Of a stretch of DNA of 64,000 nucleotides, positions 24,477-40,967 are shown piece after piece (within the stretch, counting starts at the first letter, position 1; each line of letters starts with the position of its first letter). Under the pieces are notes generated by a model, which worked only from the letters and a program-made list of their open reading frames with translations, made no database searches and was not told where the DNA came from. The stretch covers positions 1,120,001 to 1,184,000 of the forward strand of contig OY762721.1 in NCBI GenBank assembly GCA_963666345.1, given 5' to 3'. This stretch comes from Desulfatiglandales bacterium. Its GTDB lineage: Bacteria; Desulfobacterota; DSM-4660; Desulfatiglandales; Desulfatiglandaceae. Made by a program: the position numbers and the translations under genes.

Positions 24477-24953
<477 letters not shown>

Positions 24954-26013: not shown

Positions 26014-26712
26014 TCACGGCACCTCCCAGAAGGGGCCTAGCTTCATGCCTTTAATTTTGTCGAGAAGTTCGTTTCTGAGAATAGGTCTGTTAGATATAAA
26101 GTCAGGATCCAGACGCCTGCGCATGTGTTCACATGAAAACAGACTGTGCAGATCGGCAAGAGAAATGATTCCATTTTCAGTACTTGGATCGAAAAGCACC
26201 CAATTACGAACATGTTCTTCCGACCGGAAGAAGTTCATGGTGCTTCAGGCGAAACTTATGTCATCGTACCACTTATTGAAAGGAACGGCCACATATCCTA
26301 CGATACCCTCAGGATCAACATTCAATATCTCACCATCTCGCATCTCAACACTTATCGGCTCCCCACAGTGCATGCAAACCGTATCGATCTGAACTTTTTT
26401 ACCTGGAAAAAGCCAGCTAACTGCCAGCGACTCGAAGGCTCACTGGCCAAACCACTTCTGCTCACCGTCCACAGTGATGGGATACTGGTTGGGAAGGTTG
26501 TTGAAAGGGGCCAGGGAAACGATGAGATCTGTTTTTGGAAAAACCCAGCCTGGAAGTATCTCTGAAAAAAGGGCCTGAACGGCTTTTCGGCCGTTCTCTA
26601 TGGAGACCCCAAGTGCCTCAGCTACTTCAGTGAAAAATGGGGCTTTCCCGGTTTCGACAAGACTTTTCATAATGCAGTGGTAGGTTTTGTCTAAGGTTGT
26701 AGGTTCTGACAT
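26014..26712 (-). CDS. MerB-like organometallic-lyase-fold selenoprotein with two Sec (U91, U156), 232 aa
   Basis: ORFs 26440-26712 and 26014-26238 are in one frame joined by TGA 26440-26442 (WFGQ-U-AFESL) and TGA 26245-26247 (SFA-U-STMNFFRSEEH); each is followed by a hairpin; GGAGG RBS. Confidence 0.85.
26206..26238 (-). promoter_or_regulatory. SECIS-like hairpin after the second TGA
   Basis: ATGAAC-TTCTTCC-GGTC-GGAAGAA-CAT-GTTCGT. Confidence 0.7.
26411..26432 (-). promoter_or_regulatory. SECIS-like hairpin after the first TGA
   Basis: AGTCGCTGG-CAG-TTAGCTGGCT; weak stem with a bulged U. Confidence 0.5.
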
Positions 26713-26751
26713 GGCTATTTACCTCCATTTATTATTCTAGTATGAACTCAA

Positions 26752-26767
26752 AGCAATATATGTGCCG
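26752..26767 (-). promoter_or_regulatory. sigma54 promoter of the Sec-MerB-like gene
   Basis: CGGCACATATATTGCT. Confidence 0.8.
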
Positions 26768-26894
26768 AACAGGCCTTGCCTTAATTAATAAGAAATCAAT
26801 GCCATTGTATTCAGTAGTATAAGGGCGAATTTTAGGGTAGCATAAAAATTAATTAATATTATCAACGCAATAACTGGACTGGCAATATTGCAAG

Positions 26895-28649
26895 TCATAA
26901 TGGCATTTCTGCCGTTTTTAGCTTTCTGTAAATTGTTGCAGGGTCCATCTTGAGGAATTTGGCAGCCTGCTTTACGCCACCATGTTTTTTAATTGCCGTT
27001 TTTAGCAGCGTTATCTCAAACTGTCTGACGGCATTCTTGAAGGAGCCCGCTTGCTGGATAGGATAATTGAGGAAGTCCTGTCTAAGCTCTGAGGGTAAGT
27101 CCTCCATGATGATTTCATCATGTGGGGTAACCAAAACGAGTCTTTCAATTAAATTGATCAGTTCTCTGACATTGCCGGGCCATTGAAAACCTATTAGATA
27201 ATCGATTACTTCTCGAGAAAAAAAGGCATTTTTATCATATTTGAGATTGGTCTTTTCGAGAAAGAAATTGATCATATGAAGAATATCGTCCGGTCTTTCC
27301 CTAAGAGGTGGGATAAAAATGGGAATGACGTTTATGCGAAAATAGAGATCCTTCCTGAAAGTTCCCTTTTCCACCATGCCTTTTAGATCACGGTTGGTAA
27401 TAACGATGAGCCGAACGTCAACCTTCTTGGGCGTAACACTTCCAATCCTTACGATCTCAAGGTCCTGAATCGTCCTTAAAATCTTGACTTGAAGGTTTTG
27501 GGGCATCTCTCCTATCTCATCCAGGATTAGGGTTCCTCCTTCGGCAGCTTCGAAAAGGCCTTGTTTGCCCTTTGCATCGGCACCGGTAAAGGCACCATGC
27601 TCGTAGCCAAAGAGCTCCGACTCCAGAAGATTTTCAGGTATGGCCCCACAGTTTATTTTGAGCAGGGGGCTGCTGTTGCGCGTTGAGTGCCTGTGAATAT
27701 AGTTGGCAATAACCTCTTTGCCTACTCCTGTCTCGCCCGTTATGAGCACAGGGGCATCCACCTGAGCAACACGCCCGGCCAGTTCAAAGGCTTGCCTGAT
27801 TGCCTTGGATTCAGCTACAATCTGGGCCTTTTCAAAGTGGTGCGTCTTAAGCCTTTCTATCTTTTCATGATATTGACTGTAAGGCCTTTTAGATTCAATG
27901 TTTTTACTTGATAGCCGCCTGATATCGCTTAGTTCCCTGACGTTACTGACAACCATGGTGATATCGCCGTTGTCATCAAATATCGGAGTTGCAGTGACAA
28001 GGGTCTCTTTTCCAGTGAACCATCTTTTCTGTAGAGTGAGTGTCCGCTTTTCCTTGAGTACCATTTTGGTTGCTGACCGGTTTGAAAAATACCCCTCCGT
28101 TTCCAGTTCAGCCACATTCTGTCCCAGGACCTCTCTGGCCGATATACCAGTAATCTTCTCCCAGGAGGGATTAACGCGTATTATGTTGCCTTCACCGTCG
28201 GTGATAAAAAAACCGTCGTAGGATGAATCAATAATCGCAACCATCTCTTCAATCATGTGGCGGCAGTCTTCACATTTATGGATATTCTCTTCAATTTCTG
28301 AGAAATCTTGAAGAATCGTCACCACCTTGATAAGCGATTCATTTTCTAGGATAGGGATCTGATTGACAACAATAGTACGGTCATCCCATTCGACTCTTTT
28401 CTCTTTCTCAAGTTTTACTCTTAACTGAAGATCCTGGAAGTCCTTCCAGATTTCAGGGATAACCTTGGAAATATTTTTCCTTTCCAGTTCCTCGGCTTTC
28501 AGCTTTAGTATTTTTTGTGCTTCAGTATTAAAAAATGCAATCAGGCCCTGGGGGTTAGTTATAATTATACCCTTGGGCGGTAATTCAAGCATCTTCTTGT
28601 ATGTGTCTTGCTCACTTTGAAGTATGTGATTTGATAATTGCAAAGACAT
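26895..28649 (-). CDS. PAS-PAS sigma54-dependent activator (copy 1)
   Basis: [31 protein letters not shown], Fis-type HTH. Confidence 0.93.
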   Translation of the reverse strand: MSLQLSNHILQSEQDTYKKMLELPPKGIIITNPQGLIAFFNTEAQKILKLKAEELERKNISKVIPEIWKDFQDLQLRVKLEKEKRVEWDDRTIVVNQIPILENESLIKVVTILQDFSEIEENIHKCEDCRHMIEEMVAIIDSSYDGFFITDGEGNIIRVNPSWEKITGISAREVLGQNVAELETEGYFSNRSATKMVLKEKRTLTLQKRWFTGKETLVTATPIFDDNGDITMVVSNVRELSDIRRLSSKNIESKRPYSQYHEKIERLKTHHFEKAQIVAESKAIRQAFELAGRVAQVDAPVLITGETGVGKEVIANYIHRHSTRNSSPLLKINCGAIPENLLESELFGYEHGAFTGADAKGKQGLFEAAEGGTLILDEIGEMPQNLQVKILRTIQDLEIVRIGSVTPKKVDVRLIVITNRDLKGMVEKGTFRKDLYFRINVIPIFIPPLRERPDDILHMINFFLEKTNLKYDKNAFFSREVIDYLIGFQWPGNVRELINLIERLVLVTPHDEIIMEDLPSELRQDFLNYPIQQAGSFKNAVRQFEITLLKTAIKKHGGVKQAAKFLKMDPATIYRKLKTAEMPL

Positions 28650-33279: not shown

Positions 33280-33559
33280 TCCTCTTTCTCCTATTTGCTA
33301 AAATTGACAAAATATAAAATCATACAAGAAAAACTTAAGCAATACTGAATTCACCCCCTTTCTTATCAAAATTTTGTGCTTCCGGGTTAGGTTGAAAACT
33401 ATGTTCGTATTACGTGAGTATTCTTTCTTTTCTCCAGGCGCCCAATCTTGATTTCACTGTCTCTATATTCCAGGCTCGTACATGATCAAGTTTTGAAAAA
33501 TTATCGGCCCGTTAATCAGCCCCTTTTTTCTTTATTACCTTGGCTGTGTTAGTGCACTG

Positions 33560-34010
33560 ATTGTATACATCACACCACAACGCTGGGTCTTACCCGGTGA
33601 GGGTTTTTGACTAACGATGAAACGCTCACACGCCTTGACATCGGTAAGGAATATTTTCCCAGGGATGCAGTGGTTGATATCATGGCGTACTTAGAGGTCG
33701 GTCTTTATTAAACCTTTCCCGATAGTACACCAAGTTAATGGAATGGGTTGTATCAATTAAAGAACCATCTAGCACCGTGAAGTCCCCAAGCTTCTTGTGA
33801 TTTATTTGGAACATGCTGCAAGTCAGAATATAATAGGTATCTAAGACTTTTAATCTCTGTCGAGTCCTGGTGTATTGTTGATCTAAAATAAACTGCTACC
33901 TTATACCCGCTTTGGGGCTATACTTTCTTGTGCAAAATCATATTCATTTGAGGACTTGCACGAGGTATTTCCTTTTAAAGTGCTCTTTAAGGTAAAAACA
34001 TATAGGGCAT
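33560..34010 (-). pseudogene. Heavily decayed IS4-family transposase
   Basis: Frame-broken peptides LGDFTVLDGSLIDTT and DINHCIPGKIFLTDVKACERFIVSQ resemble an IS4 DDE region; boundaries approximate. Confidence 0.6.
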
Positions 34011-34323
34011 CCGGCTGCCGGGGGAATTATATCTTAAAGATGCTGGTCAGGAGTTCGGATAGTTTGTTAGATAGCGGTGACTCTTTCTTCCTGCCTTCTG
34101 CTTTGATAATGTAACGAATGTCCTTAAAATGCATGTACTTCCAAATAACCTGAGGCTTTACAAAATAAGTTTTTCAATTATAGGGCATAAATTATCTTTT
34201 ACTTCATGACAATCGATTGCAAGTTTCTAATCGGATGAAAATATTATAAGGAAAGTTCTATTAGAGATGAGTTTCTTTCCATTCCTGTTCGCTATTATGC
34301 TAAAAGGCTTTTTGTTATTTTTT

Positions 34324-34339
34324 AGCAATATCTGTGCCG
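34324..34339 (-). promoter_or_regulatory. sigma54 promoter facing the ABC operon
   Basis: CGGCACAGATATTGCT. Confidence 0.75.
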
Positions 34340-34547
34340 TATGGCCCATACCATTTTTAATAAAGGATTAAGGCTATTGTATTCAATAGCATAAGAACTC
34401 AAAGGGAGGGGGGTGGACATAGAAAAATATGGATAGAAATGGGAAGCTCAAAACTGCAATAAGTCAACACCCTGGCGGCCAAATTTAGGGGAGAATAAAA
34501 ATAAATTAATATTATCAACGTGATAACTGGACTGGCAATATTGCAAG

Positions 34548-36287
34548 TCATAATGGCATTTCTGCCGTTTTTAGCTTTCTGTAAATTGTTGCAGGGTCCA
34601 TCTTGAGGAATTTGGCAGCCTGCTTTACGCCACCATGTTTTTTAATTGCCGTTTTTAGCAGCGTTATCTCAAACTGTCTGACGGCATTCTTGAAGGAGCC
34701 CGCTTGCTGGATAGGATAATTGAGGAAGTCCTGTCTAAGCTCTGAGGGTAAGTCCTCCATGATGATTTCATCATGTGGGGTAACCAAAACGAGTCTTTCA
34801 ATTAAATTGATCAGTTCTCTGACATTTCCGGGCCATTGAAAACCTATTAGATAATCGATTACTTCTCGAGAAAAAAAGGCATTTTTATCATATTTGAGAT
34901 TGGTCTTTTCGAGAAAGAAATTGATCATATGAAGAATATCGTCCGGTCTTTCCCTAAGAGGTGGGATAAAAATGGGAATGACGTTTATGCGAAAATAGAG
35001 ATCCTTCCTGAAAGTTCCCTTTTCCACCATAGCTTTTAGATCACGGTTGGTAATAACGATGAGCCGAACGTCAACCTTCTTGGGCGTAACACTTCCAATC
35101 CTTACGATCTCAAGGTCCTGAATCGTCCTTAAAATCTTGACCTGAAGGTTTTGAGGCATCTCTCCTATCTCATCCAGGATTAGGGTTCCTCCTTCGGCAG
35201 CTTCGAAAAGGCCTTGTTTGCCCTTTACATCGGCACCGGTAAAGGCACCATGCTCGTAGCCAAAAAGCTCCGACTCCAGAAGATTCTCAGGTATGGCCCC
35301 ACAGTTTATTTTGAGCAGGGGACTGCTGTTGCGCGTTGAGTGCCTGTGAATATAGTTGGCAATAACCTCTTTGCCTACTCCTGTCTCGCCCGTTATGAGC
35401 ACAGGGGCATCCACCTGAGCAACACGCCCGGCCAGTTCAAAGGCTTGCCTGATTGCCTTGGATTCAGCTACAATCTGGGCCTTTTCAAAGTGGTGCGTCT
35501 TAAGCCTTTCTATCTTTTCATGGTATTGACTGTAAGGCCTTTTAGATTCAATGTTTTTACTTGATAGCCGCCTGATATCGCTTAGTTCCCTGACGTTACT
35601 GACAACCATGGTGATATCGCCGTTGTCATCAAATATCGGAGTTGCAGTGACAAGGGTCTCTTTTCCAGTGAACCATCTTTTCTGTAGCGTGAGTGTTCGC
35701 TTTTCCTTGAGTACCATTTTGGTTGCTGACCGGTTTGAAAAATACCCCTCCGTTTCCAGTTCAGCGACATTCTGTCCCAGGACCTCTCTGGCCGAAACTC
35801 CAGTTATTTTTTCCCAGGAGGGATTTACGCGTATTATGTTGCCTTCGCCGTCGGTGATAAAAAAGCCGTCGTAGGATGAATCAATAATCGCAACCATCTC
35901 TTCAATCATGTGGCGGCAGTTTTCACATTCAAGGAGGTTTTCTTCAACGCCTGAGACATCCTGAATTAGAATCATAACTCTGATAACCGTATCTTTGTCT
36001 ATGATAGGGATCTGATTGACAACAATAGTACGGTCATCCCATTCGACCCTCTTTTCTATCTCATGTTCGGCTCCAATCAGGATATCCTGGAAGTCCTTCC
36101 ATGCCTCAGGGATGATGTCGGAAATATGCTTCCTTTCCAGTTCATCGGTTGAAAGTTTCAGTATCTTGATAGCTTCAGGATTAAAAAAGGTAATCAGGCC
36201 CTGGGGGTCAGTTATAATGATGCCCTTGGAGGGTAATTCAAGCATCTTCTTATTCGTTTCTTGTTCACCCTGCAATATACGATTCAT
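34548..36287 (-). CDS. PAS-PAS sigma54-dependent activator (copy 2)
   Basis: Same motifs; nearly identical to copy 1 from CRHMIEEM onward. Confidence 0.93.
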   Translation of the reverse strand: MNRILQGEQETNKKMLELPSKGIIITDPQGLITFFNPEAIKILKLSTDELERKHISDIIPEAWKDFQDILIGAEHEIEKRVEWDDRTIVVNQIPIIDKDTVIRVMILIQDVSGVEENLLECENCRHMIEEMVAIIDSSYDGFFITDGEGNIIRVNPSWEKITGVSAREVLGQNVAELETEGYFSNRSATKMVLKEKRTLTLQKRWFTGKETLVTATPIFDDNGDITMVVSNVRELSDIRRLSSKNIESKRPYSQYHEKIERLKTHHFEKAQIVAESKAIRQAFELAGRVAQVDAPVLITGETGVGKEVIANYIHRHSTRNSSPLLKINCGAIPENLLESELFGYEHGAFTGADVKGKQGLFEAAEGGTLILDEIGEMPQNLQVKILRTIQDLEIVRIGSVTPKKVDVRLIVITNRDLKAMVEKGTFRKDLYFRINVIPIFIPPLRERPDDILHMINFFLEKTNLKYDKNAFFSREVIDYLIGFQWPGNVRELINLIERLVLVTPHDEIIMEDLPSELRQDFLNYPIQQAGSFKNAVRQFEITLLKTAIKKHGGVKQAAKFLKMDPATIYRKLKTAEMPL

Positions 36288-37021
36288 TGATTCTCTTTCA
36301 TGACTTATCGATGTTCTGAATGATGTTTACTTCAAAATCGTCTTTATATCCGGAGCAAGCCAAAGAAATCTTACCCCATATATCAAAGCAAAACCAGCAT
36401 TAACACCCCTAATATATAATGATATCTAACATATCATGCCATGATATTCAATGATGTTCGTTGAGTTTATAAAACACCGAAACCGGCAATAAGTGCCTTA
36501 ACTTAGCAAAATGGTATGATTCGCCCAATCCACCGGCGAATGATAACCATGTAAGTCTATTCTGCGAAAGGACAACAGAGCAAAACGAGTCCCAAAACAA
36601 AAGATCCAAATGCAACAATGCTTTCAACTAAAACTCATATTCGATTCCCTATGAATATCCGATTTAGCTTGTCTTTGAGGCTATTTTCTTATTAATTTAA
36701 TAATAAATATAAAAGGATGTAAGCTATCATTATTGGATTAAATGTATATGCAGGATCGAAGTATAGGCATATTGCTATTTCCATAAACTTGAAAACTGCA
36801 AGTTCGCGATAATAAGCTGCAAAAATGCAAATGCTTTATCCTATTGATAACATTAAAAAAAATAATTTTATTTATAAAATTAGAGCTGGATAAGATGATA
36901 TTATGCGGCTTTACCTCTCTGCTTTTCTCCAATAAAGTTCAGTGCATATTTCCCCCTTTTGTACCCTTATCCTGTCGAATACAATAGACTTAATCCTTTA
37001 TTAAAGCTGGCAGGGGTCATA

Positions 37022-37037
37022 CGGCACAGATATTGCT
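37022..37037 (+). promoter_or_regulatory. sigma54 promoter of the methyltransferase operon
   Basis: CGGCACAGATATTGCT, identical to 34324-34339. Confidence 0.8.
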
Positions 37038-37308
37038 GAAGAAAAGGCTGATTCCTCGGTGGAATAGTCGTTTATGTTTTTTTGTCTGCATTGGTAAATG
37101 GGGAACTGAAGGGATTTGGTGAAAAGCTGAAAAAGGCCTTTGGAACAAGTTATAAAATCCCAACTTACTCGATTGTGAATCAGTGAGGGGACTTTTATTA
37201 ATGCATATCTAAAGTGGATGTTTCTCCGTATGTCTATTTGGGAGAAGGTGATAAAAGTTTTTCCAGGCACTTCATTTATAATTTTTATGGCCCCTATTCA
37301 ACCGCTTT

Positions 37309-37520
37309 GAGAAAATAGGACCGGATTTAATCGCGGCGGTTATCCTACCTGTTTGGAGAAGTTTGGGGGTGATGTAAAGAGTGGAGATTATAAGCTCGAT
37401 GTGAAAGATATCACCCAGCTACTCAAAGAGGCCATCTTACGGATTGATCATCCGGAAAAACAGAAACCGTTATCGCACCCGAGGATTTTTAAAGACTTTA
37501 TAAGAAGGAGTATTTCATGA
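37309..37520 (+). pseudogene. Relic resembling the C-terminus of a CCG-domain Fe-S oxidoreductase
   Basis: EKIGPDLIAA/(frameshift)YPTCLEKFGGDVKSGDYKLDVKDITQLLKEAI; its TGA overlaps the next ATG. Confidence 0.45.
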
Positions 37521-38899
37521 AGATTTCGTTGCCGGAAATTTTATTGAGGTCAAAAGAGGGCCAGTTTATGGAGGAAAAGCAATTTGACCTGGCCCTCTTT
37601 AAAAAGACCCAGGAGCTCCAAAAAAAATACCACATCAAATATGATCCGGGAAAACCCCTGGACACCGAAGGGGACTTGGCAGACAGGATCTATCAGGCTG
37701 GAGTTGAACTTTTTACGGAACTTGGGACTTTTTGTGTCACCACCAATAGGGTTATCAATGTATCGGAAAAAGAGCTTTTTGCCGCCATTGATACTTGCCC
37801 AGAGGAAATTGAATTAGGCCAGGGAAATGAGCGGGTCAAGATGGGCCATCGAGATGTAGAAGGCGATCAGCAGGTCGTTGTGGTAGCAGGTATTCAAACC
37901 GCACCCTACAGCGACGAAGCTCATATGTTCATGATTTACAAGGGATGTGCCATGGATCGCTGTGTGGACGGGATATGGGGAGGCATCCTTTTGAAGAACG
38001 ACGGTAAGTACGATGTCATAGCTGGCACACCATCCGAGATCTATCAGTACAGAAAAACGGTGGAAATACTGAGAAAGGCCGTTACTGCGGCGGGGCGACC
38101 AGGGCTGATTACCATCAGCAATGCGCCGACCAGTGGAGCCACCATTGCCATGTTTGATGAAGAAATGGGACTTCGACGCACCGATTACATGGAAAGCACT
38201 GGCATGTCGGAGTTGAAGGTGGCCTATGATGACCTGAATCGATCGGCCTTTGCCCTTGCCCACGGGGTAAGCATCCACGGCACCCACAGCTCCACCATCG
38301 GAGGATTTTCAGGCAACCCTGAAGGCGCAACAATAACGGCTGTGGCGGGAAGCCTTCAACTTATAGCAATACATTTTGCAGATAGCTTTCGATGCGGTAC
38401 TGTAGATTCAAGAATCAAGGCCCGTCAGAGTAGAAGTCAGTTATGGTCGGCAGGTTCAGCCATTCAGGCGCTTAGCAGGAACACCAAGCTTATCGTTGAC
38501 GGCAGTATTGGAGACCACCCGGCAGCAGGTCCCGGCACCAAACAATATTTTTATGAGAGCGCGGCAGGCCATATTGTATCGACGGTAATGGGAGGTCATT
38601 CCACAGAGGGAACCCGTAAATTCACAGTGGGAAACACCTGTAATTACGGGACGCCTCTTGAGTCCCGATGGATGGGGGAAGTTTGCAAGGCGGCCGTAGG
38701 TATGGATCGAAAAACGGCGGAGCAAATCGTCTTGTATCTTTTAAGCAAATACGAAGACCATCTCATGGATGCTCCTGAAGGAGAGACTTTCGATGGCCTT
38801 TATGACCCGAAGCATATGTTACCCAACCAACATTATCAGACCCTGTATGACGAAGTCAAAAAGGAGCTTAAGGATATTGGAATCAATTTTATCGATTAA
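37517..38899 (+). CDS. Monomethylamine:corrinoid methyltransferase (MtmB) family, non-pyrrolysine
   Basis: AGRPG, ELKV, IGGFSG, AGPGT, ESRWMGEV and APEGETF..Y motifs; no in-frame TAG. Confidence 0.88.
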   Translation: MKISLPEILLRSKEGQFMEEKQFDLALFKKTQELQKKYHIKYDPGKPLDTEGDLADRIYQAGVELFTELGTFCVTTNRVINVSEKELFAAIDTCPEEIELGQGNERVKMGHRDVEGDQQVVVVAGIQTAPYSDEAHMFMIYKGCAMDRCVDGIWGGILLKNDGKYDVIAGTPSEIYQYRKTVEILRKAVTAAGRPGLITISNAPTSGATIAMFDEEMGLRRTDYMESTGMSELKVAYDDLNRSAFALAHGVSIHGTHSSTIGGFSGNPEGATITAVAGSLQLIAIHFADSFRCGTVDSRIKARQSRSQLWSAGSAIQALSRNTKLIVDGSIGDHPAAGPGTKQYFYESAAGHIVSTVMGGHSTEGTRKFTVGNTCNYGTPLESRWMGEVCKAAVGMDRKTAEQIVLYLLSKYEDHLMDAPEGETFDGLYDPKHMLPNQHYQTLYDEVKKELKDIGINFID

Positions 38900-38911: not shown

Positions 38912-39574
38912 ATGGAAATAGAAAATTTGGCTGAAGAACACAAACAAATCTTGGATTCACTTATGCGAGCCATAGTCGACATAGATGACGAAAAAGCCAC
39001 GACCATCGCCGAAAAAATCATTGAACAAGAAATCAATCCTAGCCTTGCCATCAAATATTCCATCTCGAATGCTGCTATAGGGATTGGAGAAAAATTTGAT
39101 TCTGGAGAATACTTCCTTGCCCATCTTGTCATGGCTGGAGATTTGATGGCTTCGGTGGGCAAAATCCTGGAGCAAAATATCCCTATAGAAACACGCGAAA
39201 GAAAAAAAGTAGCCGTCATCGGTGCAGTGCAGGGCGATATGCATACTGTAGGAAAGAACCTGGTGTCTACCATGTTACGTTCCGGCGGATTTGAGGTCTA
39301 TGATATGGGAGTCGACGTGCCCAGCATGGCATTTATAGAAAAGGCAAAAGAACTTGATGCAGACCTGATTGCCCTCTCTTCTCTGCTAACCACAACAATG
39401 CCCTATCAGAAAGAGGTAATTGAGGATCTGGCAGCAATGGGTCTCAGAGACCGTTTCAAGGTTATGGTGGGTGGGGGTCCTGTAACAAGAAGCTATGCTG
39501 AAAAAATTGGGGCTGATGGGTATGGTAAAGACGCCATCGAAGCACTAGAAGAAGCGAAGAAAATTTGCGCATAA
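38912..39574 (+). CDS. Corrinoid (B12-binding) protein, MtmC/MttC-like
   Basis: GDMHTVGKNLV (DxHxxG), SSLLTTT, MVGGGP, GADGY. Confidence 0.93.
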   Translation: MEIENLAEEHKQILDSLMRAIVDIDDEKATTIAEKIIEQEINPSLAIKYSISNAAIGIGEKFDSGEYFLAHLVMAGDLMASVGKILEQNIPIETRERKKVAVIGAVQGDMHTVGKNLVSTMLRSGGFEVYDMGVDVPSMAFIEKAKELDADLIALSSLLTTTMPYQKEVIEDLAAMGLRDRFKVMVGGGPVTRSYAEKIGADGYGKDAIEALEEAKKICA

Positions 39575-39599: not shown

Positions 39600-40967
39600 A
39601 TGATATCTTTGTATGAAATTGCCGAAAGAACTCAAACTGGTGAAAAAGTGGAAGAAAAGAAATGGGATATGGAATTCTACCAAAACATCAGTGAGCTTCT
39701 CAAGAAATACCAAATACAGACCCCTGACGACCACTGCTATATTAATATGGATGATGAATTGCCTGAAAGAGCCTTTGAGGCAGCTATCGAATTTTTGGAA
39801 AAAACTGGGATCTACTGCATTACTACCAGAAGACGGATAAAGCTCACTAGAGAGGAAATCCTAACTGCAATTAACGAAGCTCCTACTGAAATTTTGATGG
39901 GCGAAGGAAGGGACCGAAGGGTCTGGAAACAACGCAGCATAGAAGAAAAGGAGAAGGTTAATGTCTGTCCAGGCCATCATACTCCTTTTACGGAAGATTT
40001 GGCAGGACTTGTGGTGAGTAATTTTGCCCAGATCCCCAGGACCGACTTTATTGAAGGATTCAATTTTTCCGAAGTCGATGGTCGAGAAATAATGGGGCCA
40101 CCCATGGAAGTATACGCTTCCAGGCGCCAGGTGGGATGGATGAGAGAAGGCATTCGTAAGGCTGGAAGGCCTGGCTTGGCCATTGTCTATTATCCTATTA
40201 ATACGAGAGCGGAAGATCTTATAGGTGCAATAGACCCCGATCATGGGATCAGAAGAACAGACGGCGTCTTGCTTTCCCTTTTGCCGGATTTGAAAATGGA
40301 ACAAGATATGCTATCAGCAGCCATTGTCTACGAGGAATATGGATCCTTTAAACTGAGCGGCAGTTTTGCCATCGCAGGTGGATTCTGTGGCGGTATGGAA
40401 GGCGCAATCATCGAAGGGATCGCTAAGCCTATTGCAGCCATGATTGCCTATCGGGACTATATCAATTACACCGGCGTAGAACATGTTCATATGCTTAACG
40501 CAAGAGTAATTCTGCTTCCATGGATCAATTGGGCTCGTTCCGTTGTGAATCAGGCCTTAAACCGTTTCACTCACACACTGTGTATGCGCTGGATCATACC
40601 AACCTCGGGGCCGGGTACCGAATTGAATCTTCTTGAAGGTGCAATGCAATCCATTGAGGCCCCCATAAATGGTATGAATCTCTATGCTCCAAGGCATTGC
40701 CGAACGACGGTTAACCATGGACAAACACCACTGGAAGCTGAATGGATGATTCAGGTTAGCGATGCGGTAATTGAACAGGGATTCGACAGACGAGCAGCTG
40801 ATGAAATTTTGTCGAAGATTGCCGATGTTATTAAGGATGAAAAGCCGGCAGAAGGCTTTGATATAACTCAGTGTTATGATCTTGTTCACCACAGACCACT
40901 GCCAGAATACCAAAACGTCTACATGAAAGTAAAAACGGAACTTGCAAATATGGGTCTGAAAATTTAA
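39600..40967 (+). CDS. Second MtmB-family methyltransferase, non-pyrrolysine
   Basis: ERTQTGEK..WD, AGRPG, GGFCGG.EG, SGPGTE, CYDL...P..EY motifs; no in-frame TAG. Confidence 0.88.
   Translation: MISLYEIAERTQTGEKVEEKKWDMEFYQNISELLKKYQIQTPDDHCYINMDDELPERAFEAAIEFLEKTGIYCITTRRRIKLTREEILTAINEAPTEILMGEGRDRRVWKQRSIEEKEKVNVCPGHHTPFTEDLAGLVVSNFAQIPRTDFIEGFNFSEVDGREIMGPPMEVYASRRQVGWMREGIRKAGRPGLAIVYYPINTRAEDLIGAIDPDHGIRRTDGVLLSLLPDLKMEQDMLSAAIVYEEYGSFKLSGSFAIAGGFCGGMEGAIIEGIAKPIAAMIAYRDYINYTGVEHVHMLNARVILLPWINWARSVVNQALNRFTHTLCMRWIIPTSGPGTELNLLEGAMQSIEAPINGMNLYAPRHCRTTVNHGQTPLEAEWMIQVSDAVIEQGFDRRAADEILSKIADVIKDEKPAEGFDITQCYDLVHHRPLPEYQNVYMKVKTELANMGLKI

Follow-up and report, generated by a model that had tools for sequence, protein, structure and literature searches.

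A MerB-fold gene with two in-frame UGA codons in a Desulfatiglandales bacterium, predicted to encode a protein with selenocysteine at both metal-binding positions

We analyzed a stretch of 64,000 nucleotides (nt) from the genome of a Desulfatiglandales bacterium (positions 1,120,001 to 1,184,000 of contig OY762721.1, assembly GCA_963666345.1; henceforth the window). The subject of this report is a gene on the minus strand, at 26014..26712, that resembles the organomercurial lyase MerB (EC 4.99.1.2). From the start ATG (26712-26710) to the terminal TGA (26016-26014), the frame comprises 232 codons, and its only in-frame interruptions are two TGAs, namely codon 91 (26440..26442) and codon 156 (26245..26247). 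The coding sequence is supported by its translation, a match to the Pfam profile PF03243, and an AF2 structural model. Under translation table 11, the same gene breaks into open reading frames (ORFs) of 90, 42, and 74 residues. A ribosome-binding site, GGAGG, is located at 26722..26726 on the minus strand, 9 nt before the ATG. When 11 genes were examined, 10 proved to have an AGGAGG-type site ahead of the start codon, and for the remaining one (L024) the upstream DNA was too short to judge. A first-pass annotation of the window, made by a model from the letters alone, had proposed a single 232-residue frame running through both TGAs. Translation with TGA as selenocysteine (Sec, U) reproduced this frame at exactly 26014-26712 and contained every string quoted there (WFGQ-U-AFESL, CMHC, and SFA-U-STMNFF); the strand had been left unstated, and the gene is on the minus strand. 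The plus-strand reading of 26014-26712 was rejected as nonsense with stops.

The read-through protein, with C in place of U, matched PF03243 over residues 72-191 with 84.8 bits against a gathering cut-off of 27, and no other PF03243 gene was found in the 4.16-Mb genome. A sequence search of the PDB matched only MerB2 (5c17, E 6e-9) and MerB (3f2g, 1s6l, and others). The AF2 model, computed from 11 family members, had a predicted local distance difference test (pLDDT) score of 88.9 and a predicted template-modeling (pTM) score of 0.85. The Foldseek search with this model retrieved 11 chains at E ≤ 0.001, all of which were MerB or MerB2 (target-normalised TM 0.57-0.73), and the alignment to the MerB fold spans approximately 200 columns, the N-terminal domain included. 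Altogether, the profile score and the fold bear out the earlier suspicion of a MerB-like protein.

In the mechanism of MerB, two chalcogenolates bind the metal of the organometal and a carboxylate protonates the carbon. The HMMER alignment to solved MerB placed U91 on Cys96, E94 (26431..26433, minus strand) on Asp99, C113 on Cys117, and U156 on Cys159, in agreement with the first-pass alignment by eye of WFGQ-U-AFESL with C96..D99 (Glu for Asp) and of SFA-U-STMNFF with the C159 motif. Glu94 is invariant in the alignment of related homologues. The two-Sec protein thus resembles MerB (R831b; 3F0O, 3F2F, and 1S6L) in fold, in three equivalent active-site positions, and in the Cys113 equivalent to Cys117, but shares only 18-21% identity with it, possesses a Cys at position 116 and a His at position 167 that are not found in MerB, and is not accompanied by MerA, MerR, or MerT. 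The quartet Cys96/Asp99/Cys117/Cys159 serves as the MerB signature in the available text of Christakis et al. 2021 (PMC8261052); the protein does not conform to it, bearing Sec, Glu, Cys, and Sec there, which are chemically analogous. Judged from its sequence, the gene product is most probably a MerB-fold selenoprotein with Sec in place of both metal-binding cysteines.

The Sec machinery, on which the earlier reading depended, was detected in the genome as SelB (394 bits), SelA (609 bits), SelD (372 bits), and a tRNA-SeC with the anticodon TCA. The SelD gene (G000:C1:620342-621268, outside the window) carries one in-frame TGA, and SelD itself is thus predicted to be a selenoprotein. A hairpin had been proposed downstream of each TGA, and both were found, with GGUC-type loops. 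The first hairpin resembling a selenocysteine insertion sequence (SECIS), GCUGGC-AGUUA-GCUGGC (26412..26428, minus strand), starts 11 nt after UGA-91, and its loop is GGUCU in most relatives and AGUUA here. The second, UUCUUCC-GGUC-GGAAGAA (26215..26232, minus strand), starts approximately 13 nt after UGA-156. The pairing of both hairpins, as well as the codon statistics described below, were examined in 105 unique genes. Hairpin 1 had standard pairs in 102-104 of the 104 unique sequences, and the seven pairs of hairpin 2 were standard in 88-102 of 102. One pair of hairpin 2 has undergone compensatory changes (U-A in 26, C-G in 51, and U-G in 11 genes), and further two-sided changes were seen at two others (U-A 98 and G-C 2; C-G 101 and U-A 1). 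Rfam matched no SECIS family in the sequence and returned six chance-level matches (E 4-9). A simple scan found no intrinsic terminator after the gene, and the sole terminator-like call, within the gene, was hairpin 1, which here runs into UUUUU; the T-run is often broken in other genomes.

As the stretches forming the hairpins also encode conserved residues, we scored codon choice at conserved residues. Near-fixed codons were found within codons 95-99 and 162-165 (TCG in 95 of 98, CGG in 104 of 104, TCG in 103 of 103, and GAA in 101 of 103), and throughout codons 162-165 one codon was used in 101-104 of 103-105 genes. Synonymous sites outside the hairpins were saturated, as exemplified by Arg200, for which six codons were in use. 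The normalised codon entropy was 0.42 in the two stretches following the UGAs (16 columns) versus 0.86 elsewhere (124 columns), a contrast matched by none of 100000 permutations (Mann-Whitney p 4e-5).

A scan of one genome per species yielded 417 relatives, of which the best 80 (55-86% identical) were fetched. Sec, Glu, and Sec (U/E/U) occupied the three active-site positions in all 80 loci, 68 by pattern and the other 12, with minor motif variants, by direct reading. In 61 related genomes, we detected 10 full-length homologues distributed over nine genomes (54-61% identical), and all of them possessed TGAs in the same two columns. The retention of both TGA columns in 10 of 10 and 80 of 80 cases is in line with the contention of the first-pass annotation that random pseudogenisation would be unlikely to yield them. 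In an even sample of 401 genomes across the phylum, 44 strong matches occurred in 39 genomes, and 41 of the 44 had exactly two TGAs. The three exceptions were a copy with a third TGA near the end, a copy with an extra TAG, and a decayed copy (G376) with a TAA at codon 23, E94Q, and Val at site 2. Another copy, in G027, is truncated, being cut off after WFGR. Protein conservation extends across the TGAs, with a mean column identity of 74% and 66 invariant columns spread over all three segments. Furthermore, contigs of an identical strain and of a diverged strain from two independent marine-sediment metagenomes cover both TGA codons, and the differences listed for these contigs include none on either TGA. 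In the metagenome data, depth peaks and "loose ends" appeared at 26206-26250 and 26410-26477, i.e., the two SECIS stretches, where contigs of other organisms match solely through the nucleotide-conserved SECIS segments of the copies that they carry. A look-up of RNA runs covering the stretch listed none.

The two-Sec family is widespread in Thermodesulfobacteriota, occurring in approximately 10% of the sampled genomes of the phylum, and members were also found in bins labelled Poribacteria, Abyssobacteria, and Dehalococcoidia. Two copies were detected in several genomes (G034, G378, G436, G433, G226, and G349); those of G034 (L023 and L033) stand in tandem, approximately 190 bp apart.

An exhaustive profile search detected 1230 representatives at E ≤ 0.001. 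The best 150 of these were mostly fragments at profile positions 1-90, 92-155, and 159-233, the three pieces cut by the TGAs, as anticipated by the earlier remark that standard gene callers would split this gene. The fragments are named "hypothetical protein" or "Alkylmercury lyase" in the databases. In the 113 database sequences that were 140 residues long or longer, the residues at site 1, the acid position, and site 2 were C/E/truncated in 46, W/E/W in 29, C/E/C in 11, C/D/C in 10, and W/D/W in five, the rest being scattered. In the full-length entries that show W at both sites, the W results from translation of TGA under code 4. A large group of entries with 153-159 residues has Cys at site 1 and ends at residue 155, just before site 2; these are one-Sec (C/E/U) forms. 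True Cys/Cys proteins are represented by P0021, which is 51% identical and nested among the two-Sec forms, and by C/D/C forms such as P0074. Intact copies thus showed only TGA or Cys at both columns, the outcome by which the first pass had proposed to check its reading. The one-Sec and all-Cys relatives share with the two-Sec forms the length, the motifs WF(G/A)Q-x-(G/A)FE and FRSEEH, and the CxxC...His residues discussed below, and differ from them in that Cys occupies either site 1 or both sites. Since the machinery, the conservation of the TGAs, the continuity of coding, the interchange of Cys and Sec, and the recoding signals agree with one another, we conclude with high confidence that both UGAs are decoded as Sec.

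We inferred a FastTree phylogeny from the first 155 residues of 139 sequences with midpoint rooting. The input comprised 31 of the 105 genomic two-Sec genes, chosen at random apart from the window gene, and 108 database sequences covering at least 135 of the 155 residues. Two clades emerged, one of 23 all-Cys sequences, for the most part C/D/C, and one of 116 sequences of the Glu type (support 0.997). In the latter, one-Sec forms were basal and the two-Sec forms fell inside a clade of 82 members (support 0.986) with a few apparent reversions. As the two-Sec forms are nested among the one-Sec forms, the tree, which is weakly rooted and poorly resolved at many inner nodes, tentatively suggests that Sec emerged first at site 2 and later at site 1. 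A two-Sec subgroup with Asp at the acid position (WFGQ-U-GFDT; P0018, P0019, P0022, P0026, and P0030) formed one clade with a support of 1.0.

Between the two Sec residues lies a C-x-x-C motif (codons 113-116; 26365..26376, minus strand), which is CMHC here and mostly CLDC in relatives, and of which both cysteines are invariant in the alignment of the two-Sec family. We examined co-variation in 60 full-length sequences. His167 (26212..26214, minus strand) was present in 51 of the 52 sequences with C116, including 17 of 17 Cys forms, and in none of the eight without C116. The latter have Thr, Ser, or Glu at that position, where MerB has Thr, and no other column in this set was coupled to C116 as His167 is. 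Cys117 of MerB, at the position of C113, is described as buried and structural in the accessible part of PMC8261052. Because C116 and His167 co-vary, we read Cys113-x-x-Cys116...His167 as probably a Cys2His metal site of structural nature.

The first-pass annotation had mentioned a Sec-containing MerB-like family from clostridia, SaoL, and left open whether the present protein belongs to it. SaoL, the "selenocysteine-assisted organometallic lyase" (NF040728), is presented in the accessible portion of the preprint by Haft and Gwadz (bioRxiv 10.1101/2022.07.06.499078) as a protein of approximately 213 residues with a single Sec, which sits in a C-U dipeptide at the position of Cys159; Cys99 and Asp102 are retained, and the gene is the marker of a conserved nine-gene SAO locus. 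The two proteins are alike in the MerB fold (PF03243), the Sec at the Cys159 position, the occurrence in anaerobes, the truncation in databases, and, as far as the preprint's available text goes, the lack of a mer operon and a suspected role other than resistance. They differ in that the two-Sec protein contains two Sec (Q-U-A/G and A-U-S) instead of one, bears the extra CxxC...His, and has no conserved neighbourhood. At the positions of Cys96 and Asp99, SaoL keeps Cys and Asp according to the same text, whereas the two-Sec protein has Sec and Glu. The SaoL model scored 43.4 bits against a cut-off of 140, no SAO genes flank the MerB-like gene, and the best score of the SaoP model in the genome was 131.8 against 295. 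The SaoC model had no match in the genome, a weak blank as the SaoC control matched in no genome. Identity with SaoL is ruled out by the score of NF040728, the residues at the sites (A-U-S rather than C-U, and Sec plus Glu), and the SAO markers not being found. For the MerB fold, the available parts of a 2026 catalogue of prokaryotic selenoproteins (PMC13188914) contain only SaoL (CU, one Sec), as do those of a 2022 review (PMC9312934). No two-Sec MerB-like protein was found in searches of full-text literature or in NCBIfam, review supplements and subscription journals being outside this scope. Thus, the two-Sec family is distinct from SaoL and, as far as we searched, apparently undescribed.

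The neighbours of the gene in the window are a sigma-54 activator, a Liv-type ATP-binding cassette (ABC) transporter, an isochorismatase-like gene, and glnK-amtB. An enhancer-binding protein with PAS, sigma-54 AAA+, and HTH_8 domains in Pfam is encoded directly upstream of the MerB-like gene (26895..28649, minus strand), and a second activator at 34548-36287 (minus strand) was 92% identical to it in BLASTP. The differences between the two lie almost all in the first 130 residues, the remainder being nearly identical; the pair looks as if a duplication or gene conversion had recently produced it and the sensor ends were diverging. The MerB-like gene is preceded by a composite sigma-54 promoter (26753..26812, minus strand), a block of approximately 60 nt with the upstream element GAATACAAT..., and its -24/-12 boxes, CGGCACATATATTGCT, lie at 26752-26767, 40 nt before the ATG. 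The composite (GAATACAAT... followed by CGGCACAnATATTGCT) has three near-identical true copies in the genome, all of which are in the window, namely 26753-26812 (minus), 34325-34384 (minus), and 36977-37036 (plus). They precede the MerB-like gene, the Liv-type ABC operon (with approximately 1 kb between the promoter and the first gene), and an operon for MtmB-like and corrinoid proteins, respectively. This last operon encodes two MtmB-superfamily methyltransferases (37517-38899 and 39600-40967, plus strand) with a corrinoid protein between them (38912-39574, plus strand). Both methyltransferase genes are free of in-frame stops and are therefore non-pyrrolysine members, for which no NCBIfam model gives a name, and the corrinoid protein resembles MtbC/MtgC below the cut-offs. 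As the three promoter copies are the only ones in the genome and are flanked by the 92%-identical activators, the MerB-like gene probably belongs, in this genome, to a small regulon shared with a corrinoid methyl-transfer system.

The promoter is not upstream of the other 10 homologues examined. In the closest orthologue (L034; 86% identical), neither activator nor promoter is present, and the gene comes immediately after a livF-like one. We thus regard the arrangement as local wiring and not as a trait of the family. The 11 loci compared at first have different flanks. In the 80 loci, the commonest neighbours were a CCG-domain protein (nine loci), a molybdopterin oxidoreductase (eight), and an oxidase linked to flavin adenine dinucleotide (FAD) (seven), and the two largest ORF clusters consisted of a fragment of the gene itself and of the ORF antisense to it. 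At least two genomes (L034:886-2459 and L024:869-2203) have a gene for aldehyde:ferredoxin oxidoreductase immediately downstream of the MerB-like gene; the one in L034 is split into two overlapping ORFs by a frameshift or an assembly error. Within the window, two stretches of approximately 1.2 kb (33280-34547 and 36288-37516) are devoid of ORFs of 100 residues or more, and each holds one sigma-54 promoter; they could be long leaders or contain unrecognised small genes or RNAs. Another sigma-54 promoter-like site, TGGCATGCCCTTTGCT (24919-24934, minus strand), lies within what is annotated as the 5' end of the P-II (glnK-like) ORF, and its location suggests that the real start is downstream of the TTG start of this 155-residue ORF.

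As the best explanation of these observations, we propose a genuine two-Sec MerB-fold selenoprotein that performs MerB-like protonolysis at a diselenolate site, which we hold to be somewhat more probable than the alternatives taken together. SelB would decode each UGA through its own hairpin just downstream. A soft organometal(loid), e.g., methylmercury, would be held between the selenolates of Sec91 and Sec156, Glu94 would protonate the carbon so that the hydrocarbon leaves, and the metal ion would stay on the diselenolate until passed on. With Sec, the site may bind metal more tightly and be more nucleophilic where sulfide and thiols buffer the metal to very low levels, as in anoxic sediment. 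The accessible text of PMC10114901 reports protonolytic cleavage of the C-Hg bond of methylmercury by a synthetic selone at 21 °C. As the carboxylate is strictly kept and this model compound cleaves C-Hg, we favor cleavage over mere binding. Carbon-metal(loid) lyase chemistry, taken by itself, stands at roughly even chances in our estimate, and mercury, as methylmercury or other organomercurials, is a possible rather than a probable natural substrate.

Several points weigh against this proposal. The protein fell short of the MerB equivalog and exception cut-offs of NCBIfam (38.5 bits against 193 for NF009710 and 34.5 against 200 for NF033555). There is no conserved operon, as clustering of 509 ORFs revealed no neighbour in more than nine of the 80 loci; with no recurrent neighbour, the context gives no substrate. 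In this genome, the mer operon context is absent, the best match to the MerA model being 347 bits against 454, and HgcA reached 77 bits against a cut-off of 275. The grip of a diselenolate on Hg(II) would be extremely tight, so that turnover and product release are left unexplained. Finally, some 10% of the phylum's sampled genomes carry the family, more than is expected of mercury resistance, which speaks for a metabolic or non-mercury role; a like argument is made for SaoL in the available text of Haft and Gwadz (10.1101/2022.07.06.499078).

Among the rival explanations, the one that survives best, albeit rather unlikely, is that the two-Sec protein is real but acts as a binder, chaperone, or sensor of soft metals (Hg, Cu, Cd, or Ag) and not as an enzyme. 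Selenolates hold soft metals more tightly than thiolates, as established chemistry has it, and the available text of PMC8261052 describes MerB as retaining Hg(II) once catalysis is over and reports Cu(II) binding for a 99Ser variant. The N-terminal 60-70 residues are also weakly similar to the winged-helix DNA-binding domains of LexA and MntR (Foldseek E 0.08-0.6), but this domain belongs to the MerB fold over the approximately 200 aligned columns. Moreover, the proton-donor carboxylate, which a pure binder would not need, is kept as Glu in 80 of 80 loci and as Asp in the subgroup described above.

We consider it improbable that the protein is a redox enzyme, in which the two Sec would form a diselenide cycled by the nearby CxxC and the substrate would not be a metal. 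According to the accessible part of PMC9312934, bacterial selenoproteins are for the most part redox enzymes that carry Sec at the redox site, and an invariant CxxC does sit between the two Sec. Nevertheless, C113 corresponds to Cys117 of MerB, a deeply buried, structural residue in the description available from PMC8261052, and the co-variation of C116 and His167 (51 of 52 versus none of eight) is the pattern of a metal site and not of a dithiol relay. The fold, furthermore, is that of a metal-carbon lyase, as are all three active-site positions.

Slightly more improbable still is a lyase dedicated to methyl-metal(loid) by-products of corrinoid methyl transfer and switched on together with the MtmB-type/corrinoid system. 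It is this system, along with the Liv-type ABC operon, that has the composite sigma-54 promoter in common with the MerB-like gene, and the two 92%-identical activators flank the three promoter-linked units. There is also a modest enrichment of HgcA in genomes carrying the two-Sec gene (18 of 39 carriers versus 100 of the 362 others; Fisher p 0.025, uncorrected for shared ancestry), and two further carriers have an HgcA split at contig ends. On the other hand, the promoter and activator are absent upstream of the 10 other homologues and from the closest orthologue, L034, no MtmB or corrinoid gene occurs among the recurrent neighbours, and 21 of the 39 carriers have no HgcA above the cut-off.

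It is hardly credible that the TGAs are real stops (of a pseudogene, of three small ORFs, or through an assembly error) or belong to a code with Trp or Gly: gene callers do split the gene into the three profile pieces and some database entries do read W at both sites, but all 80 relatives keep both TGAs and the protein sequence averages 74% identity across them, distant relatives have Cys and not Trp, the gene's own stop is TGA, the SECIS hairpins are under synonymous constraint in a genome with SelB and tRNA-Sec, independent metagenome contigs agree, and the truly decayed copies (G376 and G027) look different.

The replacement of both metal-binding Cys by Sec is unusual and costly, demanding two recoding events per mRNA. 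The two-Sec design is nonetheless strictly kept in more than 100 species of sediment anaerobes, implying that selenium must matter for the chemistry. The series of C/D/C, C/E/C, C/E/U, and U/E/U forms in one clade amounts to a natural experiment on what Sec contributes to a metal site. Surveys of metagenomes for merB-like genes miss the two-Sec gene entirely, since the pipelines cut it in three or use the wrong code. Sulfate reducers and syntrophs drive mercury methylation. The same organisms are implicated in mer-free degradation of methylmercury, the mechanism of which is called "obscure" in the accessible text of a 2021 review (PMC10114901), and the two-Sec family offers a concrete gene for this question. 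It is conceivable, if rather doubtful, that the family constitutes a mer-independent degrader of methylmercury or methylated soft metal(loid)s in sediment sulfate reducers and syntrophs, linked in some lineages with corrinoid systems. If this is true, degradation would proceed at trace, sulfide-buffered concentrations through a diselenolate active site.

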